A stretch of DNA of 64,000 bases from Hydrogenothermaceae bacterium (GCA_027049315.1 JALTUV010000036.1:189463-253462); one strand, 5' to 3'. Shown: positions 10,906 through 56,614, counted from the first letter of the stretch. Program-made: numbers and translations. Notes: generated by a model not told the origin, from the letters alone.

Positions 10906-11856
10906 ATGAAAAAAAGAGCCGTTATACTAATGAATATGGGTGGTCCCGACAGTTTAGAAGCTGTTGAGCCTTTCCTGTACAATCTTTTTTCTGACCACGA
11001 CATTATAGAAATTCCTAAGTTGATACAGAAACCTGTTGCAAAGTTCATATCAAAGATAAGAGCAAAGAAAACAAAAGTCTATTATGAGTACATGGGTGGA
11101 AAATCTCCTCAAAAAGAGCAGACAGAAAAACAGGCTCAGCTTCTACAAGAAACCCTTGGTGAAAACTTTATCGTTAAAGTTGCCATGAGATACTGGCATC
11201 CCTTTACGGAAGAGGCTCTGGACAGTCTCAGGGATAAAGATATAGAAAAATTTATTCTCCTTCCCCTGTATCCCCAGTACAGCAGAACTACAACAGGTTC
11301 ATCTTTTAATGAATTTTACAGGAGATTAAAAGAGTTCAGGGAAAAAGGCTTCTTTAAAGAAGCAAAAATTGTTGAAATAAAGAGCTACCACAACCATCCT
11401 CTCTTTATTAAAGCGTGGGTTGAGAGAATCAGAGAATCTGTATCCTCACCTGAGGATTTTTATTTTTTATTTTCAGCCCATAGTCTTCCTGAAAAAGTTA
11501 TAAAAGAGGGTGACCCATACAAAAAACAGGTCGAAGAAAGTGTAAAACTGATAATGGAAAACTTTCCAAACGTTAAACACTCCCTTGCCTATCAGAGTAA
11601 GGTTGGACCTGTTAAGTGGCTTGAGCCTATGACTGATGAAGAGATTAAAAGGCTTGCAAAACAGGGAATAAAAAATCTGGTGGTTATACCTGTAACCTTT
11701 GTCTCTGAGCACTCTGAAACACTCTATGAACTTGATAAACAGTACGGAAAACTTGCTAAGGAATCTGGGATTGAAAACTATGTAAGAGTTCCAACACTGA
11801 GGGAAAGTGGGATTTTTATTGAATGTCTGAAAGATTTAGTTTTGAAGGCGGCGTAA
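10906..11856 (+). CDS. hemH: Ferrochelatase
   Basis: 316 aa; MKKRAVILMNMGGPDSLEAVEPFLYNLFSD... is the typical HemH N-terminus, with full-length similarity. Confidence 0.9.
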   Translation: MKKRAVILMNMGGPDSLEAVEPFLYNLFSDHDIIEIPKLIQKPVAKFISKIRAKKTKVYYEYMGGKSPQKEQTEKQAQLLQETLGENFIVKVAMRYWHPFTEEALDSLRDKDIEKFILLPLYPQYSRTTTGSSFNEFYRRLKEFREKGFFKEAKIVEIKSYHNHPLFIKAWVERIRESVSSPEDFYFLFSAHSLPEKVIKEGDPYKKQVEESVKLIMENFPNVKHSLAYQSKVGPVKWLEPMTDEEIKRLAKQGIKNLVVIPVTFVSEHSETLYELDKQYGKLAKESGIENYVRVPTLRESGIFIECLKDLVLKAA

Positions 11857-11864
11857 AACCGCCT
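11846..11864. terminator. Hairpin AGGCGG-cgtaaaa-CCGCCT between the convergent hemH and pilin genes; possible bidirectional terminator
   Basis: 6-bp GC-rich stem overlapping the hemH stop. The flanking U-tracts are weak. Confidence 0.3.
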
Positions 11865-11871
11865 ATCTGGA

Positions 11872-12303
11872 TTAGAATCCTGTGTATTCTCCTGTACAAG
11901 AGTTATAACTTGCAGACCATCCACCACCAATTTTAGCATGTGTACCTGTTACCTGTACTTGGTCAGAACCGTCTGGACAACCACCTGCATTAATCGTCCA
12001 ATTTATAGTAACATCCCTTGATACATTTATTGCATCTGTCTCTGTGTTAGTTCCATCTGTTAAATCACATTGGTCGGGACCTGGACCACAGGAACCTGTG
12101 TTTGGATATGTTCCATAGTTTGCGGCAAAAGCTTCAATTGCAGATACTGCGTTCCTTATATCACTTCTTACCGCATCTCTGTAAGCAGACTGTTTGTACT
12201 TGGAGAACTGAGGAATAGCTATTGCAGCAAGTATAGCTATAATAGCTATGACGATTAGAAGTTCTATCAGGGTAAAACCACCCTGAGATGTTTTTCTGTC
12301 CAT
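11872..12303 (-). CDS. pilA: Type IV pilin (prepilin with an N-methylation motif)
   Basis: MDRKTSQGGFTLIELLIVIAIIAILAAIAIPQF is a class III signal peptide with G|FTLIE. 143 aa, Cys-containing C-terminal region. Confidence 0.85.
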   Translation of the reverse strand: MDRKTSQGGFTLIELLIVIAIIAILAAIAIPQFSKYKQSAYRDAVRSDIRNAVSAIEAFAANYGTYPNTGSCGPGPDQCDLTDGTNTETDAINVSRDVTINWTINAGGCPDGSDQVQVTGTHAKIGGGWSASYNSCTGEYTGF

Positions 12304-12342
12304 TTTTATGACCTCCGTTTTTATTTTTCGTTTTAATTATTA

Positions 12343-12357
12343 GCAATAATCGTGCCA
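12343..12357 (-). promoter_or_regulatory. Sigma-54 (-24/-12) promoter of the pilin gene: TGGCAC-N5-TTGCT
   Basis: The minus strand reads TGGCACGATTATTGCT, a perfect match to the RpoN consensus. An RBS GGAGGT lies 7 nt before the pilin ATG. Confidence 0.75.
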
Positions 12358-12408
12358 TATATAAGTTCTTGATTTTTAATAACTTTTCGAAAGAAGAGTG
12401 TAAAAACT

Positions 12409-12447
12409 TGACAAATTTTGTCAGATTAGCTGACAATTTTTGTCAGC
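12409..12447. promoter_or_regulatory. Two tandem palindromes about 22 bp apart (TGACAAATTTTGTCA and GCTGACAATTTTTGTCAGC); candidate bEBP/UAS sites for the adjacent NtrC/PilR-like regulator
   Basis: Perfect inverted repeats centred at about 12416 and about 12438, roughly 60-90 bp upstream of the sigma-54 promoter. The second overlaps the regulator's stop codon. Confidence 0.6.
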
Positions 12448-13795
12448 TCTTTGGTGTAAGGTACTTTTCAAGTCTATATCGGAATTCTCTTAAATTAAGA
12501 CCGAGCAATTCTGCAGCTTTTGTTTTGTTACCGTTGGTTAACTCTAATGCCTTGAGAATATAAGCTTTTTCTATTTCTTCTAAAATCTTTTTGATATCAA
12601 CCCCCTCAGGAGGAATTTCTACAGATAGGCTTACCCCTTTTGAGTATGGGCAGTGATGACATTTTAGAACTCCATCTTCTGAAAGAATAACCTCTTTTTC
12701 CACAATGTTCCTAAGTTCTCTTATGTTTCCTTTAAACTCATAACTTGAAAGAAATGCCATAAATGATTTGTCTATTTTCTCTATCTTTTTGTTGTATTTT
12801 TTTGAAAATTCTTTTATAAATATCTCAGCTATCTCAGGTATATCTTCTCTCCTCTCCCTTAAAGGAGGAACTCTTATAACTATTCCTGCAATTCTGTAGT
12901 AAAGGTCTTCTCTAAATCTACCTTTTTCTATTTCTTTTTCTAAATCTTTATTTGTAGCAGATATTATTCGCACATCAACAGAAAGCTCCTCTATACTTCC
13001 AACAGGTCTGAATTTTCTCTCTTCGAGAAAATGTAGAAGTTTAGCCTGGACAGAAAGAGGCATCTCACCAATCTCATCCAGGAAAACCGTTCCACCGTCA
13101 GCTATTTCTAAAAGTCCCTTCTTATCAGAAACAGCACCTGTAAATGCTCCCTTTACGTGTCCAAAAAGCTCAGACTCTAAAAGTTCCTCAGGAATACTTG
13201 CACAGTTTATTGATAGAAACGGTTTTTCCTTTCTTGGACTTAATCTGTGAATCAGTTTTGCGATTACCGTTTTGCCTGTTCCACTTTCACCGGTTATTAA
13301 AACATTTATGTCGTACGGTGCTATTTTTTTTATTGTTTCTTTAAGATTTTTGATTACTTTTGACTTTCCAATTAGTTCAATATCTTCGTCAATCTCTTTT
13401 TCTTTAAGCTTTTTTTCTAACTCAATTTTGTTCTTTACATTCCTAATCAGGAGTTTTAGTTCAGGAATTGAAAACGGTTTTTGAATATAATCATATGCCC
13501 CTAATTTCATAGCTTTAACAGCGGTATCAGGAGTAGCGAATGCTGTTATTATGATTACCTCTGTATTTGGATTTTTTTCTTTTATCTCCTTTAGAATATC
13601 TATTCCGTTCCCATCCGGAAGCCTTAAATCAACAAGTGCCAGGTCAAAACTCTGTTCTTCAGATAATCTTTCAAACTCGTAGAAAGAGTTTGCAGTCTTT
13701 ACATTAAATCCAAACTCTGAAAGAACAATGGACAGTATTTCTGATATGTTTTTCTCATCGTCAACAACTAATGCTTTCATTTCACCCATTATCAT
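12443..13795 (-). CDS. Sigma-54-dependent response regulator (NtrC/PilR family)
   Basis: Receiver domain (VVDDE...DLRLPDGNG); AAA+ sigma-54 activator domain (GESGTGKT, GAFTGA, ESELFGH); C-terminal Fis-type HTH. The likely start is the internal MKALVVDD. Confidence 0.9.
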   Translation of the reverse strand: MIMGEMKALVVDDEKNISEILSIVLSEFGFNVKTANSFYEFERLSEEQSFDLALVDLRLPDGNGIDILKEIKEKNPNTEVIIITAFATPDTAVKAMKLGAYDYIQKPFSIPELKLLIRNVKNKIELEKKLKEKEIDEDIELIGKSKVIKNLKETIKKIAPYDINVLITGESGTGKTVIAKLIHRLSPRKEKPFLSINCASIPEELLESELFGHVKGAFTGAVSDKKGLLEIADGGTVFLDEIGEMPLSVQAKLLHFLEERKFRPVGSIEELSVDVRIISATNKDLEKEIEKGRFREDLYYRIAGIVIRVPPLRERREDIPEIAEIFIKEFSKKYNKKIEKIDKSFMAFLSSYEFKGNIRELRNIVEKEVILSEDGVLKCHHCPYSKGVSLSVEIPPEGVDIKKILEEIEKAYILKALELTNGNKTKAAELLGLNLREFRYRLEKYLTPKS

Positions 13796-14933
13796 ACCCT
13801 ATTGGTAACCATACTATAAATTTTGCTCCATTTAGAGGACTCCTATCCACTTTTATACCTCCACCAAGTTCAATAATATATTTCTTGGCTATAGCAAGTC
13901 CAAGTCCAGTTCCCTCTTTTCTTTTCGTAAAAAAAGGCTCAAAGATTCTATCTATATCCTCTTTTTCTATTCCTTTTCCATCGTCTTCAATTTCAATAAA
14001 CATCTTACTGTCTTTTGTATATGCATTTATAACAACCTTTGACTTAGACCACTGAAAAGCATTCTGAATAATATTTCTCAAGGCAATCTCAAGAGCATCA
14101 GGAACAGTATATATATACAGGTTCTCACTTATATTCACAAACACCTCTTTATTTCCTATGTTTATTTTTCTCAAAATGTCATGTATAAAGTTCCTTATAT
14201 TTATATCTACGTAGTTCTTCTCTACAGGTTTAGAGAATGTTAAAAAAGTATTTAAAATTTCTTCTATTCTCCTCCCTTCAGATTTTATAATGCTGACCAT
14301 TTTATCCCTATAGTCAGGATTTTCAATTAAATCAACTGCAGCTAAAAGAGATGTAAGAGGGTTTCTTAGTTCATGAGCAAAATCTGCGCTAATCCTGTAC
14401 AGTCTTTTAAAAACTTCACTTTTTTTATTTTCTTCCTCAAGCATGGCTATATATTTTTTTTGTTCTAACATCCTACTGTACATACCAAGGGCAGCATAGT
14501 TTATTACAAAAAGGGAAAAGGAAATAAGAACTGTATTTATCATATTTTCAAAAGAAAAATCACCGTAGATAAATACAGTTAAAACGTACGTCAGTACTGC
14601 AAAAAAAGGTTGCAGATACGAATCCTTCCTTCCTGTAAGGAAAGCATAGAAAAAAATAGGGAAAAGGTATAGAATCGCAAGGTAGTTAAAAAGGTCAAAT
14701 CTCAAGAAGATAAGGGAGGATATAAAAACAACATCAAGAAAAAAGTCAAAAAAACCTATTTTTTTTAGGTTAAATAGGGAAATAAAGGCAGTTATGTTGT
14801 ATATAATGAGGATTACTGTTTCTGTTCTGTAAAGTTCATAGTTCTTTACAAAAAAAACAAAAAAACTTAAAAAGAGGAATGCAAAAATTAACCTACTTAT
14901 TTTATAAGTCAGGTAAACATTATCGATATTCAC
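13782..14933 (-). CDS. Sensor histidine kinase (PilS-like), multi-TM N-terminus
   Basis: H-box FAHELRNPL; N, G1 and G2 boxes (QNAFQWS, EDDGKGI, GTGLGLAIAK); about 5 N-terminal TM helices. Overlaps the regulator gene. Confidence 0.85.
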   Translation of the reverse strand: MNIDNVYLTYKISRLIFAFLFLSFFVFFVKNYELYRTETVILIIYNITAFISLFNLKKIGFFDFFLDVVFISSLIFLRFDLFNYLAILYLFPIFFYAFLTGRKDSYLQPFFAVLTYVLTVFIYGDFSFENMINTVLISFSLFVINYAALGMYSRMLEQKKYIAMLEEENKKSEVFKRLYRISADFAHELRNPLTSLLAAVDLIENPDYRDKMVSIIKSEGRRIEEILNTFLTFSKPVEKNYVDINIRNFIHDILRKINIGNKEVFVNISENLYIYTVPDALEIALRNIIQNAFQWSKSKVVINAYTKDSKMFIEIEDDGKGIEKEDIDRIFEPFFTKRKEGTGLGLAIAKKYIIELGGGIKVDRSPLNGAKFIVWLPIGYDNG

Positions 14934-45248: not shown

Positions 45249-45327
45249 TGGCGGAGCCGACGGGATTCGAACCCGCGACCTCCGGCGTGACAGGCCGGCG
45301 TTCTGGGCCAAGCTGAACTACGGCTCC
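45249..45327 (-). tRNA. tRNA-Asp (GTC), CCA encoded
   Basis: Cloverleaf resolved manually; anticodon loop CTGTCAC; T-loop TTCGAAT. Confidence 0.85.
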
Positions 45328-45334
45328 GCTTGGA

Positions 45335-45407
45335 TGGGCGGTATAGGATTCGAACCTATGACCCCCTCCTTGTAAGGGAGGTGCTCTGGCCAGCTGAGCT
45401 AACCGCC
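45335..45407 (-). tRNA. tRNA-Val (TAC), CCA not encoded
   Basis: GGGCGGTTAGCTCAGCTGG...; anticodon loop CTTACAA; acceptor GGGCGGT/ACCGCCC. Confidence 0.85.
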
Positions 45408-45505
45408 CATATTCAATTAGACTAATATATTATAACACCAACATATATTTGTCAATACTGTACATCGGTTGGGTAATTACTAATTTAAATTTAAGAGAAT
45501 TAAAA

Positions 45506-45582
45506 TGGTTGCGGGGGAGGGATTTGAACCCTCGACCTCCGGGTTATGAGCCCGGCGAGCTACCAGGCTGCTCCACCCCGCG
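45506..45582 (-). tRNA. Initiator tRNA-fMet (CAT), CCA encoded
   Basis: C1xA72 mismatch and three consecutive G:C pairs (GGG/CCC) at the base of the anticodon stem; loop CTCATAA. Confidence 0.8.
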
Positions 45583-45624
45583 CAAGGTGTATCAAAATAT
45601 ATTCCAGTTAAAAACCTATTCAAG

Positions 45625-45701
<77 letters not shown>

Positions 45702-45706
45702 TAAAA

Positions 45707-45779
45707 TCGGAGTGGCAGGACTTGAACCTGCGACCCCGTGCTCCCAAGGCACGTGCTCTGCCACCTGAGCTACACTCCG
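45707..45779 (-). tRNA. tRNA-Pro (TGG), CCA not encoded
   Basis: CGGAGTGTAGCTCAGGTGG...; anticodon loop CTTGGGA. Confidence 0.85.
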
Positions 45780-45977
45780 ATAGAGCAGGAAAATAATATA
45801 TCACTAAAACTTATAAATTGCAATACTTGGATATTTGGTTTGCAGGTCTAATAAACAAAAAATTCTGGTAAATAAACAACGAAGCCATTACCCTTTTTAT
45901 TAAACTAACATTCTTTCTTATTTTTAAAGCTTCTCTCTTTTTTCTTATCTACGTTTTACAGTTTGATATAAGGCTTA

Positions 45978-46313
45978 CTATTCCTTTTCTAATTCCAAAG
46001 ATTTTTCAGTTATTTCAACAATCTCTTTAAGAGACTGTCTTGCCACAATTGTAGGCGGAGATGGAAGTTCTAAATCTTTTATCTGATTATAGACTTGGAT
46101 AGCTTTTTCATCAGCTTTTTTAAGCCTTTGTTTTTGTTCTTCTGTTAGCTGGTTTTTGTGTTTTCCTAAATCTTTCCTTTCAAGAAATGCTTGAACTAAT
46201 TCAATATCTATTGCAGTAGGTAAAGGAGTAGTAAAATCTTCAACATCTAAATACTTAATTTCTACTTCATAATTTCTTAAAAATTCTTCTAACTTCTTTT
46301 TTAAGTTTTTCAT
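45978..46313 (-). CDS. Hypothetical protein (island-borne)
   Basis: 111 aa, charged and coiled-coil-like; no recognisable family. Confidence 0.45.
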   Translation of the reverse strand: MKNLKKKLEEFLRNYEVEIKYLDVEDFTTPLPTAIDIELVQAFLERKDLGKHKNQLTEEQKQRLKKADEKAIQVYNQIKDLELPSPPTIVARQSLKEIVEITEKSLELEKE

Positions 46314-46693: not shown

Positions 46694-48412
46694 TTATCTG
46701 CTTCTTAATTTCCAAATTTCAATTTTTTCTTTGATTTCTGGACGTTCTTTTTCAAAATCCTCTAAAAACTTATCAAATTTTTCTATAAATTTTTCAACAC
46801 TTTTTTTTGATGTTTTCCTTTCATGCCTTATAAATGATAATAGAATTTTTAAAAATTCTGGGTTTTTTATACACTGTTCTATTTGTCTAAAATCAAGTTC
46901 ATTTAATTTTTCACCTTCCGTACTTGGACAATCCATTTTAAGAATACATAACATCAATTCCTTTAAGCCATCACATGAGTTAACAGTCAAGCTTTCGACT
47001 TCTTTTTCTTTAGTATCTATATACTTTTTGAGCTTGGGCACTTTCTCAGCCATGTTTTTTAAAGAATAAAGTCCGAATCTTTCTATTTTTATTATTCTTT
47101 TAAATTCTTCCTTATCTTCTATATAGATTTTATCTAAATATGAAGTGATAACATCGGCAAAATAATCTTTATATCTATTAGAATTTTCTTTGTCCATTAC
47201 TGATAATATTTCTATCATCCAACCATATAAATCTGATATAGAAAAAATGCTTAATATATCTTGTTTATATTGTTCAAAAGGTTTCCATATTTTTTCTATA
47301 AAATCTTTATCTTCATACTCAATAGAATAAACATAACGTTCAAATTCTTCTTCAAATTGATACTTTATTGCTAAATTCTTCCTCCTATTTAATTCTTCAT
47401 CAAACTTAATTCTAATTTCTTCAGTAATATCATCCGTCAATAATTCTGTATCAATATATTCAAAGAAAGGATAGATAAACTCTGGATAAAAAGAGATAAA
47501 TAAAAAATCAATTTTTTTTAAATGATTAAATAAATCAATTACATCTTTCGATTCCTTCGATAAATCTTTGTTTTTCAAATAAATATTAAATTCTCTAATA
47601 ATTTCTTTTATTGTTTTAGTATCTTTATTTTTGGCTTTTTTTAAATAAATAAATGGAAGCAAATATCTTACGGATTCTTTTAATAAATTTCTATCTACAT
47701 CAATATTACACAGCTTATTTATAAGATAACTAACCTGAAGCATACTACGAATGTTTTTTATATCATTAACAACAAAGAATTCTTTTGCTTCTTCATGAAA
47801 ACATTTAAATCTATTTTTTATAAGTTCAAAATTTTCTTCAACTGTGGGCTCATAAGTAAATTCAAAATCAACAATTTTTTCCTTGTATTCATCATATTCT
47901 TTTTTAAAGTGTTTGTACTTATCCAATAAGATTTCTTCATTTAAAATGAAAATAATTTTACATCTTTTATCTTCTTTGAGCTGAGCAATTAATCCCATGA
48001 TATCTTTTGGTTCAAGACAACTTGATAATCTTTCAAAATCGTCAATTACGACGATAGCATTTTTAATATCTGTAGTACTAACAAGAGATAATAAATTACC
48101 TATCGCTCCAGCTTTAGATGAAACTCCTTCTAACTGTTGTAAGACACGAGATACATCTCCCAAAATTTTTCTAAATTTTGCAATTTTAAAAACTATTTCA
48201 TTTTCAATTATATTTAAAGAATCTTTACCAAATAAAGATATATATGCATATCTCTGTCCAAAATTATTTAAAAAATTCCTTATAAAATGAGTTTTGCCAA
48301 CTCCCCATTTTCCCTTTATGACACATACAGTTTCTTCACTCTGATTTAAGATTTCTTTTAGATTATTTTCTATATCTTTTATGCTCATTTGAAATTCTTT
48401 ATCTTCTTCCAT
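46694..48412 (-). CDS. KAP-family P-loop NTPase (predicted)
   Basis: 572 aa; Walker A GKWGVGKTHF near the N-terminus and a distant Walker B VVIDDFERL, with a long helical C-terminal region. Divergent from hsdR. Confidence 0.6.
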   Translation of the reverse strand: MEEDKEFQMSIKDIENNLKEILNQSEETVCVIKGKWGVGKTHFIRNFLNNFGQRYAYISLFGKDSLNIIENEIVFKIAKFRKILGDVSRVLQQLEGVSSKAGAIGNLLSLVSTTDIKNAIVVIDDFERLSSCLEPKDIMGLIAQLKEDKRCKIIFILNEEILLDKYKHFKKEYDEYKEKIVDFEFTYEPTVEENFELIKNRFKCFHEEAKEFFVVNDIKNIRSMLQVSYLINKLCNIDVDRNLLKESVRYLLPFIYLKKAKNKDTKTIKEIIREFNIYLKNKDLSKESKDVIDLFNHLKKIDFLFISFYPEFIYPFFEYIDTELLTDDITEEIRIKFDEELNRRKNLAIKYQFEEEFERYVYSIEYEDKDFIEKIWKPFEQYKQDILSIFSISDLYGWMIEILSVMDKENSNRYKDYFADVITSYLDKIYIEDKEEFKRIIKIERFGLYSLKNMAEKVPKLKKYIDTKEKEVESLTVNSCDGLKELMLCILKMDCPSTEGEKLNELDFRQIEQCIKNPEFLKILLSFIRHERKTSKKSVEKFIEKFDKFLEDFEKERPEIKEKIEIWKLRSR

Positions 48413-48485: not shown

Positions 48486-51212
48486 ATGAAACCAGAAGAA
48501 AAAACAAGAGAATTAATAGACCAGCAGCTTAAAAATGCGGGATGGGAAGTTCAGGATTATAAAAGAATCAACCTATCATCAAATTTAGGTATAGCTGTAA
48601 GAGAATTCCCTTTAAAAGGTGGAATTACAGCAGATTATCTATTATTTGTAAATAAGAGAGCCATTGGTGTAATAGAGGCAAAACCAGAAGGAACTACTCT
48701 TGGAGGAGTTTCGGAGCAATCCCAAAGATACTTAGAATCATTACCTGAAAATATTCCTCACTATCAAATCCCTTTACCTTTTTCTTATGAAGCTTCTGGA
48801 ACAGAAATATTTTTTAGAGACATAAGAGACCCTGAATATCGTTCAAGAAGAGTTTTTTATTTTCACAAACCTCAAACACTGCAAGAATGGGCAGAAGATA
48901 AAACCACACTAAGACAAAGATTAAAAGAACTTCCTGTTAAATATCCTTTGAATAAAGAAGGTTTAAGAGATGCCCAATATGAAGCTATAAAAAATCTTGA
49001 AATTTCATTAGCACAGAATAAGCTCCGTGCCTTAATTCAAATGGCAACAGGCAGCGGTAAAACCTATGTAGCGGTAGCTGAAAGCTATAGACTAATCAAA
49101 TATGCAAAAGCAAAAAGAATTCTATTTCTTGTAGATAGAGCAAATCTTGGAAGGCAAACTTTAAGAGAATTTCAAAATTATATTACTCCAGATGATGGAA
49201 GAAAATTTACAGAGCTGTATAATGTTCAGTTATTAAATTCAAAGGTTATTGACCCTGTTAGTAAGGTTTGTATTTCAACAATTCAAAGAATGTATTCAAT
49301 ACTCAAAGGTGAAGAACTTGAAGAAGAATTAGATGAAAAATCTTTATTTGAGTTAGAAGAGAAAATAAAAAAACCTTTAGAAGTAGAATATAACCCAAAA
49401 GTTCCTATTGAAACATTTGATTTCATTATAGTTGATGAGTGCCACCGTTCAATTTATAACCTATGGAGACAGGTTTTAGAATACTTTGACGCTTTTATTA
49501 TTGGTTTAACTGCTACCCCTGCAAAACATACCATAGCCTTTTTTAATAAAAATCTTGTTATGGAATATCCACATGAAAAGGCTGTGGCTGATGGAGTAAA
49601 TGTTCCTTATGATGTTTATAGAATAAAAACGAAAATTTCAGAACAAGGTGCAAAAATAGATGCTGGTTTTAATGTAAAAAAGAGGGATAAATTAACAAGA
49701 GAGCAAAGATGGGAACTATTAGATGAAGAAGTTGAATATAATTCAAAACAACTTGATAGAAGTGTTGTTGTTCCTGACCAGATAAGAACAATTATAAGAA
49801 CATTCAAAGAAAAACTATTCACTGACCTTTATTTTTGCTAAAGATGATTCACATGCTGATGATATTGTTCATATAGTTAGGGAAGAATTTGGAAAAGGGA
49901 ATGAATTTTGTAAAAAAATCACATACAAAACAACTGGTGAAAAACCTGAAGATTTAATAGCAAGTTTTAGAAATTCTTATAACCCAAGAATCGTGGTGAC
50001 AGTTGATATGATTTCAACAGGAACAGACATAAAACCTGTTGAGTGTCTTATTTTTATGAGAGATGTTAAATCAAGGGTTCTATTTGAACAGATGAAAGGA
50101 AGAGGAACAAGAGTAATTAATTCTGAAGACTTACAGGCTGTCACTCCAGATACAAAACATAAAACACATTTTGTTATTATTGATGCTGTCGGTGTAACTG
50201 ATAATGATAAAACAGACTCAAGACCGCTTGAGAGAAAGAGAAGTGTTCCTTTTGAAAAACTCCTGTATAATGTAGCTTTAGGAATAAGAGATGAAGATAC
50301 TGTTCTTTCTTTAGGAAACAGATTAGCAAGACTTCAAAGAACTTTATCTGTTAATCAACAAAAAGAGTTAGAGGAAAGAGCAGGAAAACCACTAAAAGAC
50401 ATTATTAATAAACTTTTTGAATCAGTAGACCCTGATAAAAAGATAGAAAAAGCAAAAGAGTTATATAAAACTGAAAGTCCAACACAAGAGCAAATAAAAA
50501 AAGCAGAAGAAGAATTAATTAACAAAGCTTGCGAACCTTTAGATAATCCTGATTTTAGAGAGGCTTTAATCCAAATTAAAAAAGCTAATGAACAAATAAT
50601 AGATGATATAAATGTTGATGAGGTAACCTATGCAGGATTTGATGAAGAAGCAAAAGAAAGAGCAATGAAAACAATTGAAAGCTTTAAAAGGTTTATAGAA
50701 GACAACAAAGATGAAATTGATGCCCTACAGATAATTTATAACCAGCCGTATTCAAAAAGACATATAACATTTAAACAGATTAAGGAACTTGCAGAAAAAA
50801 TACAAAAACCACCTTATAACTTAACTCCTGAACATATATGGAAGGCATATGAACAACTTGAAAAATCAAAAGTTAAAGGTGCAGGAAGTGTTAAACTATT
50901 AACCGATATTATCTCACTTATCAGATTTACACTTGGAATTGATGAAGTTTTAATGCATTTTCCAGATATTGTTGACCAAAATTTCAAGAAATGGTTAAAA
51001 GAACAAGAAAAAAAGGCAGAAAATTTACAGATGAACAGATAGAATGGTTAAAAATGATAAAAGACCACATAGCAACAAGTGCAGAAATATCAAAAGATGA
51101 TTTTGATTATCCACCATTTAACGAAAAGGGAGGACTGATAAAGTTTTATAATCTTTTTGGAGATGAGATGGATAAAATATTAGAAGAGTTAAATGAGGAA
51201 TTAGTTGCATGA
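48486..51212 (+). pseudogene. hsdR: Type I restriction enzyme R subunit HsdR, interrupted by two frameshifts (three ORF fragments)
   Basis: Fragment 1 (48486-49841) holds the HsdR N-domain and helicase motifs I-III (QMATGSGKT, VDECHRS, LTATP). Fragment 2 (49993-51042; open from 49798 in the +1 frame) holds motif IV-VI (TFIFAKDDSHADD...VTVDMISTGTD). Fragment 3 (50991-51212) holds the EcoEI_R_C-like tail (KFTDEQIEWLKMIKDHIA). The frame switches lie at homopolymers: A5 at 49810-49814 or T5 at 49832-49836, and A7 at 51008-51014. Confidence 0.75.
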
Positions 51213-52806
51213 ATGAAAATAAATTGCCAGAGATACCAAAAGAATGGAAGTGGGTAAGATTAGAGGATGTATCATATTTAATAACAGATGGAACACATAA
51301 AACGCCAAAATATCAAGAAAAAGGTATAAGATTTATATCAATAGCAAATATAAGACCCTTTCAACCTATTAATTGGGATGCTTACGAGAAATATATTTCT
51401 TATGAAGAGCATTTAGAATTAATAAAAAGAGCAAAACCAGAGAAAGATGATATTTTGTTTCCAAGGATTGGAACCCTTGGATTTGCCAAAAGAATAGACT
51501 TTGATGAAGAAGTTTCAATTTTTGTTGGATTAGGTCTTGTAAAACCAATAAAAAAATATGTATTGCCTAAATATATTGAATATTACATGAATACACCTTA
51601 TGTAAATAAATATTCTCATAAAAAGCTACAGGAACAGGAAGATTAACTCTTCCGCTACATGCAAGTAAAGCAATGCCTTTCCCTCTTTCTCCCCTCCCTG
51701 AACAACAAAAAATTGTTGAGATTTTGGAAGAAGCATTTAGCAAAATTGATGCAGGGGTTGAAGGACTTAAAAAGATAAAAAAATTGCTTTCTTTATATAG
51801 ACAAGCGGTTTTAAAGTATGCCTTTGAAGGAAAACTCACTGAAGAATGGAGAGAGAAAAACAAAGATAAACTTGAACCAGCAGAAAAACTGATAGAAAAA
51901 ATAAAAAAAGAAAGAGAAGAAAGATACAAACAAGAGCTTGAAGAGTGGAAAAAAGCCTGTGAAATAGCTAAAAAAGAAGGTAAAAAGAAACCACCTAAAC
52001 CAAAACCACCAAAAGAACTCCCACCTATAACAGAAGAAGAACTGAAAAACTTACCAGAGGTACCAAAGGAGTGGAAGTGGGTAAGATTAGGAGAAGTAGG
52101 AACTGTTTATTCTGGAGGCACACCTTCTACAAAAGTTCCAAGTTATTGGGGTGATGAAATACCATGGATAACACCTGCTGATTTATCAGGCTATAAACAT
52201 AAATATATAAGTAAAGGTAGGAAATCTATAACTAAATTAGGATTAGAAAATTCTTCGGCAGTTTTAATGCCTGCTGGGACGGTATTATTTTCATCCAGAG
52301 CACCTATTGGGTATGTAGCTATAGCGTCAAATCCAGTTAGCACAAATCAGGGATTTAAAAGTATATATCCCTATAAAAGTATTCTAAGTGATTTTATCTA
52401 TTATTATTTGAAATTTGCTAAAGAAATTATAGAAAATATGGGAAGTGGAACCACATTTAAAGAGGTTTCTGCAAAAGTATTTAATTTAATTCCTTTTCCT
52501 TTATTATCTTTGTCTGAACAACAAAAAATCGTAGAAGAGATTGAATATAGACTATCAATAACTGATAAGCTTGAAGAAACAGTTGATAGACTTTTAGAAA
52601 AAGCAGAAAAGTTAAAACAATCCTATCTAAAATACGCATTTGAGGGAAAGCTAACAGAAGAATGGCGAAAACAAAACCCACATTTAATAACTGGCGAAAA
52701 CTCTGTAGATAGATTATTAGAAAAAATCAAAGCAGAAAAAGAAAAATTTGAAAAACAGAAAAAGAAGCCTAAAGTAAAACAAAAATCTTTGATAGGTACT
52801 AAATAG
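51209..52806 (+). pseudogene. hsdS: Type I specificity subunit HsdS, split by a frameshift after TRD1 (51209-51646 plus 51673-52806)
   Basis: TRD1 (LPEIPKEWKWVRLEDV...) ends prematurely. The -1 frame, open from 51622, reads KATGTGRLTLPLHASKAMPFPLSPLPEQQKIVEIL into the central conserved region, then TRD2 (LPEVPKEWKWVRLGEV) and a C-terminal repeat (AFEGKLTEEW). The slip is at A5, 51620-51624. ATGA overlap with hsdR. Confidence 0.7.
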
Positions 52807-54776
52807 TGAAATTAAAAAGTTTAAAAATAAAAAATGTAAAAAGCTTTAGAGATGAAACGGAATTTAACTTTCATGATGATTTTAATATCTTAATTGGAAC
52901 AAATGGCGGAGGAAAGAGTAATCTTTTAGATATTATTTCTATAGGATTAAAATATTTCTTATTTAATGGCTATACTTATAGCGAAAACTTTGATACAACA
53001 TACCAAAGATTAAATAGAAACATTAATCAAATTCCATTAGATACGTTATCAAGAAAATTGGAAAAATTTTACGGATATGTTAACGACAGTTCATTTATTG
53101 AGTTTGGTTTAATTTTAGAAGAACAAGATATTGAAATAATAAAGCTTGTTCAAAGCTATTTAAATAAAATAATTTCAGTTCTTGAACAAACTTTCAACAA
53201 TGGAAAGCATTTAATACAACATTTAAACTTAAATAGCTTAAGTAGTCTTGATATAAGTTCAATTCCAATTAATCAAGAGATAAAATTTAAATTTGTACAT
53301 AATCAACTAAGTTTTTCAGAAACAAATATTAGGCATCATACTGCTCAATTTATACAAAACTTTTTCAAAAGTTATGAAATTTTTAGAATTGCGAGTAATT
53401 ATATAGAAAATCTGAAATTACCACCTTTATTATTATTCTTTAGTCCTTATAGAAACTTAGAAATTAACAATCTTTCAATAATGCTATCAAACTTTAACTA
53501 TCCTGCTGAATATGAGAAATTATTTACATCTTCTTCTAAAGACACCTTAAATTTAACTAGACTTGCTATAGCTTATTTTGGAGAAAAAATGAGAGATTTC
53601 GAAGTTAAATCAAAAATTGATACTTGGGAAGAAGACGAAGAAGTTAAATTGGTTAGTAAATATTTAAATAAATTGGGGTATGGTTGGAATATAAAATTAA
53701 TAGATAAAATAAAAAATACTTATGAAATAGAATTAATAAAAGATGGTCAAGGTTTTTCAATTGACAATGCAAGTTCAGGTGAAAGGGAAATAATAAATTT
53801 CCTTTTTGGGATATTTGCCTTCAATATAAAAAATGGATTAATAATCATTGATGAGCCAGAACTTCACTTACATCCAAAATGGCAAAAAATATTATTAGAA
53901 CTATTTGTAGAGCTATCAGAATTAACAGGTAATCAATTTATTATTTCTACCCATTCGCCTATTTTCATTAATGAAAAAACTTACAATCATGTTGTTAGAA
54001 TTTACAAAGATAATGAAAATGTTAGCCGAGTAATTACTATTCAAGATAAACCATATTTAAAAATCAAGGATTTACTTCAACTTATTAACAGCACAAATAA
54101 TGAAAAGATTTATTTTGCAGATGCCGTTATATTAGTTGAAGGAATTACAGATAGAATAGTTTTTCAAAAAATTTTGGATGATATTATTGAAGAACAAAAT
54201 ATCAATAAGAACATTGAAATAATAGAAGTTAAAGGAAAATCAAATAGAGAAAAATTTAGAGTATTTCTCAATGAATTAAAAATACCTAACTTCTTTATTG
54301 GAGACTTTGATGTAATTACTAACTTAGATGGTTCTGAGGAAATAAAAGAAATATTTAAAACCAATGAAGAAAAAATTTATAAAGATGTAATAAAAAATAA
54401 AAACAGTAAAGATGGTAAAGAATTAGTCCACCAACTAGAAAAAGCTGTGGAAAGCTGTGATTGTGGTGATTTAAAAGAGCTATGGGAATATATAAAATAT
54501 CTAAGAAAAGAAATAAAAATTGATGCATTAAATGAAGAGGATAAAAGGAAAATATATGAGTTTATAGAAAACAAAAAGGCAGAAAATATTTATATATTAC
54601 CTAAAGGTGAGATTGAGGATTATTTACCTGAAGGATATAAAACAAAAGATGTTGAAAATGCAATTAAATTAATCAATTCTCCAGAAGATTATAATAAGTG
54701 GAAAGAAACACCTGAGTACAAAGAACTTGAAAAGTTGATAAAAGAAATAATAAATAAAATTACTTCAAGAGGTTAA
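52806..54776 (+). CDS. OLD-family / PARIS (AriA-AriB fusion)-like ABC-type ATPase plus Toprim nuclease
   Basis: 656 aa; Walker A GTNGGGKSN; Walker B/D-loop IIIDEPELHLHP; H-loop ISTHSP; C-terminal Toprim-like VILVEGITDR...FIGDFDV. The GTG start overlaps the hsdS stop (TAGTG); the stop is 4 nt before the hsdM ATG. Confidence 0.65.
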   Translation: MKLKSLKIKNVKSFRDETEFNFHDDFNILIGTNGGGKSNLLDIISIGLKYFLFNGYTYSENFDTTYQRLNRNINQIPLDTLSRKLEKFYGYVNDSSFIEFGLILEEQDIEIIKLVQSYLNKIISVLEQTFNNGKHLIQHLNLNSLSSLDISSIPINQEIKFKFVHNQLSFSETNIRHHTAQFIQNFFKSYEIFRIASNYIENLKLPPLLLFFSPYRNLEINNLSIMLSNFNYPAEYEKLFTSSSKDTLNLTRLAIAYFGEKMRDFEVKSKIDTWEEDEEVKLVSKYLNKLGYGWNIKLIDKIKNTYEIELIKDGQGFSIDNASSGEREIINFLFGIFAFNIKNGLIIIDEPELHLHPKWQKILLELFVELSELTGNQFIISTHSPIFINEKTYNHVVRIYKDNENVSRVITIQDKPYLKIKDLLQLINSTNNEKIYFADAVILVEGITDRIVFQKILDDIIEEQNINKNIEIIEVKGKSNREKFRVFLNELKIPNFFIGDFDVITNLDGSEEIKEIFKTNEEKIYKDVIKNKNSKDGKELVHQLEKAVESCDCGDLKELWEYIKYLRKEIKIDALNEEDKRKIYEFIENKKAENIYILPKGEIEDYLPEGYKTKDVENAIKLINSPEDYNKWKETPEYKELEKLIKEIINKITSRG

Positions 54777-54780
54777 TACA

Positions 54781-56214
54781 ATGACTCAATCAGATATAGT
54801 TCAAAAAGTTTGGAATTATTGTAATGTTTTAAGAGATGACGGAGTAAGTTATGGAGATTATTTAGAGCAACTTACATATTTATTATTTTTAAAGATGGCT
54901 TATGAATACTCTAAACCACCATATAACAGAGAATCCATTATTCCTAAAGGTTTAGATTGGGAAAGTTTAAAATCAAAAGAAGGTTCAGAACTTGAAGCAC
55001 ATTATATAAAAATTCTCCAAGAACTTGGTAGAAAATCAGGATTATTAGGTCTAATCTTTAGAAAAGCACAAAATAAAATCCAAGACCCAGCAAAATTAAA
55101 AAGATTAATATCTCTAATAGACCAAGAAAACTGGGTAGGTTTAGATATAGATGTAAAAGGTGAGATTTATGAAGGATTGCTTCAAAAGAACGCAGAAGAT
55201 ACAAAAAGCGGAGCAGGTCAATACTTTACACCAAGACCTTTAATTAAAGCAATTGTTGAAGTTATGAGACCACAGCCAAATATGACTATTTGTGACCCTG
55301 CTTGTGGAACAGGTGGATTTTTAATAGCAGCTTATGAATATATAACAAAACACTATCCATTAGATAAAGAACAGAAAGAGTTTTTGAAAAATAAAGCCTT
55401 TAAAGGATGGGAGATAGTAGATAACACAGCCAGACTTTGTGCAATGAATCTTTATTTACATGGAATTGGTGGTGAAAATAGTATTCCTGTAATTGTTCAA
55501 GATGCGTTAGCTGTTGACCCAGGAGAGAGATTTGATATGGTTCTCACAAATCCACCTTTTGGAAAGAAAAGCAGCATAACCATAACAAACGAAGAAGGAA
55601 AGGAAGATAAAGGAGGATTAATATATCAAAGAGATGATTTTTGGGTTACCACATCAAACAAACAACTTAACTTTTTACAACACGTCAAAACAATTTTAAA
55701 AATAAATGGAAAAGCAGCTGTAGTTATACCTGATAACGTTTTATTTGAAGGTGGAGCAGGAGAGGTTATTAGAAGAAAATTGCTTCATGAATTTGATGTC
55801 CATACACTTCTTAGACTTCCAACAGGTATATTTTATGCACAGGGTGTTAAAGCAAACGTCTTATTTTTCGATAAAAAGCCTGCCAGAGAAAAACCTTGGA
55901 CAGAGAAGCTTTGGATTTATGATTTTAGAACAAACAAAAAATTTACACTAAAGAAAAATCCTCTTAGATTTGAGGATTTACAGGACTTTATAAAATGTTT
56001 CAATCCAGAAAATAGACTTGAAAGAAAAGAAACAGAAAGATTTAAAGCTTTTACCTATGATGAATTAATAAACAGAGACAAAGTAAACCTTGATATAACC
56101 TGGCTAAAAGATAAATCTTTAGATGACATTGAAAATTTACCACATCCTGATGAGTTACTATCTGAAATTCTTAATGAAATAGAATCTATATATGAAGAAT
56201 TTAGAGATATTTAG
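54781..56214 (+). CDS. hsdM: Type I restriction-modification N6-adenine DNA methyltransferase subunit
   Basis: 477 aa; an HsdM N-domain, motif I DPACGTGGFL, motif IV LTNPPFGKK. Apparently intact. Confidence 0.9.
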   Translation: MTQSDIVQKVWNYCNVLRDDGVSYGDYLEQLTYLLFLKMAYEYSKPPYNRESIIPKGLDWESLKSKEGSELEAHYIKILQELGRKSGLLGLIFRKAQNKIQDPAKLKRLISLIDQENWVGLDIDVKGEIYEGLLQKNAEDTKSGAGQYFTPRPLIKAIVEVMRPQPNMTICDPACGTGGFLIAAYEYITKHYPLDKEQKEFLKNKAFKGWEIVDNTARLCAMNLYLHGIGGENSIPVIVQDALAVDPGERFDMVLTNPPFGKKSSITITNEEGKEDKGGLIYQRDDFWVTTSNKQLNFLQHVKTILKINGKAAVVIPDNVLFEGGAGEVIRRKLLHEFDVHTLLRLPTGIFYAQGVKANVLFFDKKPAREKPWTEKLWIYDFRTNKKFTLKKNPLRFEDLQDFIKCFNPENRLERKETERFKAFTYDELINRDKVNLDITWLKDKSLDDIENLPHPDELLSEILNEIESIYEEFRDI

Positions 56215-56260: not shown

Positions 56261-56614
56261 TGGTGGAGGCGGGGGGAATCGAACCCCCGTCCGAGAACAG
56301 CCCTCGCACGGGCTTTCTACAGGCTTAGCCTGTGATTAAGGTTTCGCCTGCAGCGTCCCCACAGGCAGGGCTACTGCAGGCTATCCCCGTAAGAGTTTCG
56401 GGAAGTGCCTCAGGGGAGCTTGGCACTCCCCTATCCCGTGTATCTGTCGCCCTTCCTGAGCCCACGGGCAAACTCAGGAGGACGTCGCTGCGCTAATTAG
56501 GCAGCGAGAGCGAGTTCACGTTCGGGAATTGTTTGCGCTTGGTTTTTTACGGAGTTCTCCTTCTCCGGCCTGCTTACCCGGCTCGGCTGTTCCCGTCGAA
56601 CCCGCATCGCCCCC
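56261..56614 (-). ncRNA. ssrA: tmRNA (ssrA), 354 nt
   Basis: 5' GGGGGCGATGCGGGTTCGACGGG...; 3' tRNA-like end GGTTCGATTCCCCCCGCCTCCACCA (G3:U pair in the acceptor). The internal tag reading frame ends ...PERELALAA-TAA. Confidence 0.8.

Follow-up and report, generated by a model that had tools for sequence, protein, structure and literature searches.

An OLD-family nuclease gene of Class 1 in an exchangeable slot of a Type I restriction–modification operon from a Hydrogenothermaceae bacterium

[quoted passage not shown] The question is raised by a 64,000-nucleotide stretch of DNA from a Hydrogenothermaceae bacterium (GCA_027049315.1, JALTUV010000036.1:189463-253462; hereafter the window), in which an intact gene of the OLD family (hereafter old) lies in such a position. 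The original prediction, made from this DNA alone, saw an OLD/PARIS-like nuclease, possibly a backup effector guarded by the R-M system that senses inhibition of the HsdMS complex. Judged from its sequence, the protein is a catalytically complete Class 1 OLD nuclease of the P2 Old type, and in near-identical operons its place is taken by an unrelated defence cassette. We find it probable that old is an autonomous anti-phage or anti-mobile-element module that sits in an exchangeable cargo slot of the R-M operon.

Domains, catalytic residues and class of the OLD protein

The assignment to the OLD family of ATPase–Toprim nucleases, already made in the original prediction, is borne out by Pfam, by PADLOC and by a structure in the Protein Data Bank (PDB). 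In Pfam, the protein matches AAA_15 (E = 1.4e-27), AAA_21 (9.5e-26) and SMC_N, and its residues 437–502 match OLD-like_TOPRIM (PF20469, 2.5e-15). The best PADLOC profile is Old (3.1e-44), spanning residues 342–646, with AriA (9.2e-30), AriAB (2.6e-23, covering only residues 1–502), GajA and PtuA all scoring lower. Among PDB sequences, the match is to 6P74 (8.9e-15), the Class 1 OLD of Thermus scotoductus (TsOLD). Taken as profile matches, these domain assignments are far beyond chance. The best match among 50,697 phage records is P2 Old, with 28% identity over residues 343–632; identity to P2 Old is 23–28%, and the whole C-terminal half of the protein can be aligned to it. The GTG start of the gene is supported because homologues share the same N-terminus, M/V-K-L-x-S-I-x-I-K-N-V-K-S-F.

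All motifs named in the original prediction are present, namely GTNGGGKSN, IIIDEPELHLHP, STHSP, VILVEGITDR and FIGDFDV (Table 1), and of the domains that it named for a profile search, AAA_15, AAA_21 and an OLD-type Toprim were found, with the catalytic acidic residues in place. In the ATPase, none of the residues G31, N33, G36, K37, S38 and N39 varies among 21 homologues. In the Toprim domain, the metal A ligands E445, D500 and D502 align with E398, D453 and D455 of P2 Old and with E377, D431 and D433 of TsOLD, and the metal B ligand D449 aligns with E402 of P2 Old and D381 of TsOLD. The second metal B element and catalytic lysine region, GEIEDYLPEGYKTK, carries E602, E604 and K612/K614, which align with D541, E543 and K550/K551 of P2 Old. 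Of these, E604 and K614 are invariant in the 21 homologues, as is the neighbouring G601; in the alignment with P2 Old, K614 is nearly so. The residues of P2 Old that are essential by mutation, their loss abolishing killing, have been listed (PMC7049728); all of these mutation-validated residues are conserved in the window protein, and most catalytic residues are invariant or near-invariant across the 21 family members, which are 37–80% identical.

An AlphaFold2 (AF2) model built from the 21 homologues (predicted local distance difference test 85.9; predicted template modelling score 0.81) was compared with known structures using Foldseek. The top matches come from three OLD classes: the retron-Eco8 OLD (9lpa_B), GajA (8u7i and 8sm3) and TsOLD (6p74). 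These matches span the full length of the protein (about 700 aligned columns; E 1e-14 to 1e-16, probability 1.0), with a template modelling (TM) score of only about 0.4 because domain orientations differ. At 656 amino acids, the protein is larger than P2 Old (586) and TsOLD (528). The excess of about 70 amino acids over P2 Old comes from the ATPase domain, whose insert (residues ~60–300) is larger and probably serves dimerization or sensing.

The other OLD classes are defined by partners, and none of these was found near old among the window genes searched with Pfam: there is no UvrD/PcrA/Rep-like helicase, no reverse transcriptase (RT) and no separate AriB. Rfam likewise returned no retron non-coding RNA (ncRNA), only transfer RNAs (tRNAs) and a transfer-messenger RNA (tmRNA). 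The PARIS-like label was not sustained: no DUF4435/AriB domain is detected by Pfam at E<=0.01, the Old profile outscores AriA and AriAB, and the C-terminal half is that of P2 Old. Gabija is ruled out in the same way, as there is no GajB/UvrD-like helicase neighbour and the only helicase nearby is the superfamily 2 (SF2) HsdR pseudogene. The retron class is excluded by the partner-gene and domain tests (no RT, no ncRNA). We also considered a fused or derived PtuA and rejected it, since the similarity (29% identity over 161 amino acids) is confined to generic ABC motifs.

The window protein shares with the Class 1 OLDs (P2 Old, TsOLD 6P74, Vc OLD and Escherichia coli YbjD) the ABC ATPase with its insert, the OLD-type Toprim and the C-terminal region, and also the absence of a partner, be it a helicase, an RT or AriB. 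PARIS (AriA/AriB, Class 4) and GajA (Class 2) have the same ABC ATPase and Toprim chemistry, with profile and fold similarity, but PARIS has an AriB-type DUF4435 domain and Gabija the GajB helicase, both lacking here. In its setting inside a Type I R-M operon, the window gene differs from the usual account of Class 1, that of a single gene in isolation. In the survey of Schiltz et al., 107 of the 837 old genes lie in species-specific operons, defence operons included.

The hsdS–hsdM slot and the state of the host operon

The original prediction placed old within a same-strand Type I operon with a 1-nucleotide overlap upstream and a 4-nucleotide gap downstream, and both junctions were confirmed. 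The last G of the hsdS stop codon TAG, which ends at 52806, opens the GTG of old ('aaataGTGaaa'). At the other end, the TAA of old (54774-54776) is followed by 'taca' and then by the hsdM ATG at 54781, and the hsdM Shine–Dalgarno sequence GAGG sits within the 3' end of old. A promoter and terminator scan found no terminator-like site at the hsdS/old or old/hsdM junction; on promoters, the scan was uninformative, since for this AT-rich DNA the shuffled sequence gave more promoter-like sites than the real one. The tight junctions suggest that old is co-transcribed with the R-M genes, and it is probably translationally coupled to them as well.

Using HsdM as the search query, we compared the contigs of the closest relatives. 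In operons with an HsdM 81–95% identical to that of the window, the order S-[X]-M is kept, X being OLD or Septu, and hsdR lies upstream wherever the contig reaches that far. The slot holds OLD in L081 (KAP-R-S-OLD-M, KAP being an NTPase gene) and in L166 (OLD-M). It holds Septu in five loci. Two of these read R-S-PtuA-PtuB-M (L173, HsdM 94.5% identical; L175, 88.3%), one reads S-PtuA-PtuB-M (L177, 82.1%), and two are cut by the contig edge: L176, whose HsdM is the same protein as that of L175, reads S-PtuA-PtuB-M after a cut open reading frame (ORF), and L174 (89.9%) reads PtuA-PtuB-M after a partial ORF. The Septu-type cargo consists of an ABC ATPase of 517–521 amino acids and a second protein of 250–253 amino acids. 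PADLOC identifies the L173 pair as PtuA (PDLC00293, 2.8e-188) and PtuB (PDLC00333), the latter profile matching the small proteins of L173 and L175 at 3.3e-75 to 2.5e-77. Finally, L178/L179 (76.9%) is a plain R-S-M operon without cargo, in which hsdS and hsdM overlap by 11 nucleotides. The native order of this R-M family is therefore R-S-M, as seen in L178, and R-S-X-M arises by insertion. The gene order, held in the original prediction to be unusual in itself, loses that standing, also because ORFs between hsdS and hsdM have already been described in Campylobacter hsd loci (PMC5183652).

The exchange can be followed to the base between the window and L173. Their DNA is 93% identical from 47221, inside the KAP gene, to 52763, which is 43 nucleotides before the hsdS stop, and again 92% identical over 54780–56203, a segment that starts one base ahead of the hsdM ATG. 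Between 52763 and 54780 blastn finds no alignable DNA. From these breakpoints, the cassette consists of the hsdS tail and the cargo. The aligned DNA thus shows a precise cassette replacement of OLD by Septu PtuAB in near-identical operons. In a neighbour-joining tree of HsdM, OLD and Septu loci interleave (in three pairs: the window and L173, L081 and L174, L166 and L175), which implies that the exchange has occurred repeatedly, by recombination. L081 (OLD) and L173 (Septu) were recovered from one and the same metagenome sample, 3300028400.

The hsdS tail differs with the cargo. Septu-bearing HsdS proteins have an extra C-terminal tail of about 64 amino acids, LSILEVLEENGGEMDSKEVWK...ERGSILRLKR (L173 5578-5813; also L174, L175 and L177), for which Pfam returns nothing significant, whereas HsdS of OLD-bearing and empty alleles has no such tail. 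Because it co-varies with the Septu cargo, the tail might link HsdS to PtuAB. In L166, a 72%-identical relative, homology to old starts at residue 240, 61 nucleotides from the contig end, with a stop codon upstream; old thus seems to be 5'-truncated there beside an intact hsdM, although an assembly artefact is possible (L166 1-100).

The host operon in the window is itself damaged. We mapped its lesions independently against two intact relatives, L081 and L173, and obtained the same three from each: a 32-bp deletion at 49829 and a 1-nucleotide deletion at 51009, near the 3' end, in hsdR, and a 1-nucleotide deletion at ~51620-51625 in hsdS. The old gene is uninterrupted and full length, and hsdM is intact (its product is 93–95% identical to HsdM of L081 and L173), in agreement with the original prediction that these two genes are whole and hsdR and hsdS broken. 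L081 provides the intact syntenic version, with KAP, HsdR (919 amino acids, as in L173), HsdS (532), OLD (656) and HsdM (477). With hsdM intact but hsdR and hsdS broken, the operon is a Type I system in a degraded state. A sequencing error is an unlikely source of the 32-bp deletion; the two 1-nucleotide lesions are known from the assembly rather than from reads. The first hsdS fragment, 51209-51646, corresponds to the first target-recognition domain (TRD1), and the second, 51673-52806 (377 amino acids, with its own ATG), to the central conserved region, TRD2 and the distal conserved region. Half-HsdS subunits can sometimes dimerize into a working S subunit. HsdM therefore cannot be called partnerless, as the 377-residue half-HsdS might still pair with it.

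Selection on these genes was estimated as the ratio of non-synonymous to synonymous substitution rates (dN/dS; Nei–Gojobori) between the window and L081, a between-lineage measure that is blind to very recent relaxation of selection. For old, the ratio is 0.20 over the whole gene, 0.06 in the block from Walker B to the H-loop, 0.11 in the Toprim domain, and 0.30 in the ATPase insert and the C-terminal helices. It is 0.05 for hsdM and 0.07–0.08 for the hsdR and hsdS fragments, and because the broken genes keep such low values the hsd lesions are recent. By these substitution rates, old is under purifying selection, yet evolves faster than the R-M genes; OLD is 79% identical between the window and L081, compared with 90–93% for the R-M proteins.

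Table 1 Coordinates of the features discussed, counted from the first base of the window
Feature	Position	Strand	Details
tRNA genes (Asp, Val, Met, Arg, Pro)	45249-45780	-	tight cluster of five; left island border
KAP-family P-loop NTPase	46694-48412	-	572 aa; PADLOC candidate PDC-S49, 5.5e-20; divergent from hsdR
hsdR pseudogene (EcoEI_R_C type)	48486-51212	+	Pfam HSDR_N, ResIII, EcoEI_R_C; ORFs 48486-49841, 49993-51042, 50991-51212
hsdS, split	51209-52806	+	Pfam Methylase_S; ORFs 51209-51646 and 51673-52806
Exchangeable cargo cassette	52764-54779	+	from blastn and junction alignments against L173
old (Class 1 OLD-family nuclease gene)	52806-54776	+	GTG start, 656 aa, 1971 bp; ABC ATPase, OLD-type Toprim, C-terminal helical region
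Walker A/P-loop, GTNGGGKSN	52896-52922	+	aa 31-39; K37 = P2 Old K37
Walker B and D-loop, IIIDEPELHLHP	53841-53876	+	aa 346-357; D349 = P2 D299; H356 = P2 H306
H-loop, STHSP	53946-53960	+	aa 381-385; H383 = P2 H332
Toprim core	54114-54314	+	aa 437-503; PF20469; VILVEGITDR aa 441-450, FIGDFDV aa 497-503
Second metal B element and catalytic lysine region, GEIEDYLPEGYKTK	54606-54647	+	E602, E604, K612/K614
hsdM, intact	54781-56214	+	477 aa, 1434 bp; Pfam HsdM_N and N6_Mtase, 3.1e-70
tmRNA (ssrA)	56261-56614	-	Rfam RF00023, 185 bits; missed by ARAGORN; right island border

Possible readings: autonomous module, guard, accessory or remnant

Under the reading we hold probable, old would have been captured between hsdS and hsdM of an operon with an EcoEI_R_C-type HsdR, on a low-GC island of a Persephonella-like Hydrogenothermaceae bacterium, whose MutS shares 68–74% identity with named Persephonella proteins. 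Since co-transcription is suggested by the junctions, the OLD and R-M layers would be inherited, transferred and expressed together. If the protein behaves like P2 Old, TsOLD and Vc OLD, an infection cue, probably sensed through the fast-evolving ATPase insert, would activate the ATPase-controlled nuclease, and the activated enzyme would nick or degrade DNA, so that phage replication is blocked or the cell is killed. OLD would work without the R-M proteins, and here appears to have outlived HsdR. Several properties of known systems accord with this. Class 1 OLDs nick DNA or act on it as 5'–3' exonucleases, in a metal-dependent manner regulated by ATP (PMC7049728), and P2 Old kills when RecBCD is inhibited, according to the literature. 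A bacterial Class 1 OLD, Vc OLD, defends on its own: its block of ICP1 replication does not depend on RecBCD and requires ATPase as well as nuclease residues (PMC11741312). According to a survey of embedding (10.1101/2024.01.29.577857), known defence systems are commonly found inside Type I R-M, BREX, DISARM and Hma loci, at sites that are recombination hotspots. Systems nested in this way usually act on their own, and true guards such as PrrC are embedded almost exclusively.

A protein search with OLD gave 592 sequences at E<=1e-10. Most homologues of the window protein whose surroundings were inspected are indeed found alone. About 14 lineages, 30–50% identical to it, stand alone; among them, the 45–50% identical homologues of Bacteroidota and Methanobacterium lie in variable, defence or mobile regions, with neighbours that include TIR-SIR2, AbiTii, HEPN/MNT pairs, toxin–antitoxin pairs, and transposases or an integrase. 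The same holds for homologues carried by a megaplasmid of Ralstonia and by a plasmid of Methanomethylovorans, and in about 12 further lineages represented by metagenome loci tblastn found no Type I genes within up to 8 kb of old. A scan of viral contigs returned no close relative, so that this OLD clade is not evidently phage-borne. As to the synteny check named in the original prediction, R-S-X-M recurs in close relatives with OLD or Septu as X, and most homologues lack an R-M neighbour. Two of the stand-alone loci have neighbours of their own. A Tenuifilum-like bacterium carries a 49%-identical stand-alone OLD with a gene for a DUF2726 (nuclease-like) protein 165 nucleotides downstream (L082 10118-11026; also L083 and L084), which could be a two-gene variant. 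At L085 (11084-14284), a stand-alone homologue lies in a defence island that also holds TIR-SIR2, AbiTii, a protein with an FRG domain and another TIR gene.

Several observations pull the other way, towards a functional tie with the R-M proteins. The start–stop overlap of hsdS and old is also kept in L081. Both alternative cargos are ABC-ATPase nucleases, the general type of the R-M guards PrrC and RloC. A second OLD clade, whose members are 63–87% identical to each other and 32% to the window protein, has hsdS followed by old in three of its five informative loci: in L096, 14 nucleotides separate the hsdS stop from the old ATG, L114 has hsdS and then old, and L108 reads R(EcoEI_R_C)-M-S-old. 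In the other two, L097 and L098, the upstream DNA contains no hsd gene. Overall, hsd linkage is seen in ~2 of ~16 clades, or 4 of ~22 lineages, and in every one of them old comes directly after hsdS. This adjacency exceeds random adjacency and simple island clustering and could reflect a tie to HsdS/HsdM. The survey behind these counts is small (~22 lineages, many of them on short metagenome contigs), and Type I genes were detectable in it only by similarity to two Hsd query sets (tblastn).

The tie proposed in the original prediction would make OLD a guard of the R-M system, latent under or monitoring HsdM/HsdS and firing abortively when Ocr, ArdA or a Stp-like protein disables the complex, as PrrC does in EcoPrrI and RonA with HsdMS. 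We consider this unlikely. In its favour are the position of old between hsdS and hsdM, with an overlap and a gap so narrow and both conserved in L081, the recurrence of the adjacency in an independent clade, the presence in sister alleles of another ABC-ATPase nuclease together with a co-varying HsdS extension, the precedents of PrrC, PARIS and Ronin as guards, and the triggering of ABC-ATPase systems by anti-defence proteins. The idea is weakened by the mostly stand-alone homologues, by Septu in the same slot and by an intact old beside broken hsdR and hsdS. The hsd linkage of OLD is far below the near-exclusive embedding reported for PrrC, and Septu is known as a stand-alone system. Moreover, hsdR is dead and a full-length HsdS impossible, yet OLD is intact, whereas a guard that no longer has its guardee would be expected to turn toxic or to disappear; here the half-HsdS that might pair with HsdM has to be borne in mind. 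L166, in turn, keeps hsdM with an apparently 5'-truncated old. Somewhat less probable still is a broader form of the idea, in which the slot is a dedicated docking position for ABC-ATPase nucleases, OLD or Septu, which would be controlled by HsdS/HsdM and fire upon anti-restriction attack on the methyltransferase core. Its footprints would be the hsdS–OLD adjacency in two clades only 32% identical, the HsdS tail co-varying with Septu, and the survival of OLD, hsdM and half of hsdS after the loss of hsdR, which would then be an R-less configuration like that of Ronin. If true, it would extend the guardian logic of PrrC and Ronin to OLD and Septu.

It is improbable that the whole operon is merely a decaying island remnant, in which old has no current function and is intact for lack of time. 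The three inactivating lesions, their recent date as judged by dN/dS, and an island with neither integrase nor attachment-site (att) repeat would fit such a remnant; against it, old and hsdM (1971 and 1434 bp) are free of lesions where the ~4.3 kb of hsdR and hsdS have three, and OLD retains all of its catalytic residues. Least probable of all is an integrated R-M accessory, in which OLD would be no immune system of its own but would supplement or replace the nuclease of the restriction complex, for example by processing the DNA ends that HsdR produces or by cutting HsdMS-bound DNA. An operon shared with the R-M genes, junctions suggestive of coupled translation, the fact that old and hsdM are the two genes left intact, and the 5'–3' exonuclease activity of P2 Old and TsOLD on linear DNA could be cited for it, but a 77%-related operon is plain R-S-M without cargo, the cargo gives way freely to a system not homologous to it, and homologues mostly have no R-M neighbour.

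In its setting, old resembles the embedded systems described under 'guilt by embedding' (Payne et al. 2024): it likewise lies between host defence genes, its homologues are mostly non-embedded, and its slot likewise takes alternative cargo in the manner of a recombination hotspot. Other instances of embedding are DarTG2 between hsdS and hsdR in enteropathogenic E. coli (EPEC) and the rlo/mlo ORFs in the hsd loci of Campylobacter. PrrC, RloC and Ronin (RonA with HsdMS) are likewise encoded in or beside Type I hsd genes, and PrrC and RloC likewise use an ABC-type NTPase module to control a nuclease; their effector is a HEPN-like anticodon nuclease, however, and that of Ronin a small membrane protein, whereas the window protein has a Toprim DNA nuclease domain. 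The PrrC family is also R-M linked, and the OLD family mostly is not. Septu occupies the same slot in sister operons and is also based on an ABC ATPase, but its nuclease is an HNH protein from a separate gene, unlike that of OLD.

The protein family, its chemistry and the phenomenon of embedding are all already known; as annotation, the locus is ordinary, a known nuclease family in a known kind of arrangement, and it is a clear example of the nesting of one defence system inside another. In the papers searched, the supplementary tables of the embedding survey aside, we found no mention of a Class 1 OLD in an Aquificota hsdS–hsdM slot with Septu as its allelic alternative, the backbones being over 90% identical. 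Class 1 is the least understood of the OLD classes, its triggers being largely obscure. To our knowledge, Class 1 phenotypes come from P2 Old, Vc OLD and YbjD only. R-M backbones more than 90% identical, with OLD, Septu or nothing in one slot, form a natural comparison series, suited to asking whether embedding means mere co-inheritance and co-regulation, synergy of two systems, or true guarding of the R-M system. The loci also document precise intra-operon cassette exchange in deep-branching thermophiles (Aquificota), in which defence biology has hardly been studied.

The island and its neighbours

The operon lies on an island of ~10.5 kb with a GC content of 25–30%, compared with 35–39% in the flanks (Table 1). 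The island holds a small ORF, the divergent KAP NTPase gene, hsdR, hsdS, old and hsdM. The 3' end of ssrA is 46 nucleotides past the hsdM stop, and ssrA is a classic island integration site. No integrase was found on the island, and a comparison of the ssrA end with the tRNA end revealed no att-like repeat; because the longest word shared by the two ends is 9 nucleotides, there is no evidence of recent integrase-mediated insertion. Homology with L081 runs into ssrA, which places L081 at the same chromosomal site.

The KAP gene is kept beside the operon in L173 (93% nucleotide identity) and in L081 (48% amino-acid identity), and for this reason may be one more defence gene that moves together with the R-M locus. 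At the edge of the island, an ORF of 111 amino acids (45978-46313, minus strand) has no Pfam or PADLOC match. Beyond the KAP gene, L081 (48-1625) carries an RHH/ParE toxin–antitoxin pair with faint Pfam matches only, and the gene for a 357-residue protein that has weak, sub-threshold WYL and winged-helix matches and may be a defence-island regulator. Near the Septu operon of L175, the gene for gyrase A (11418-14864) contains an intein that has a LAGLIDADG homing-endonuclease domain.

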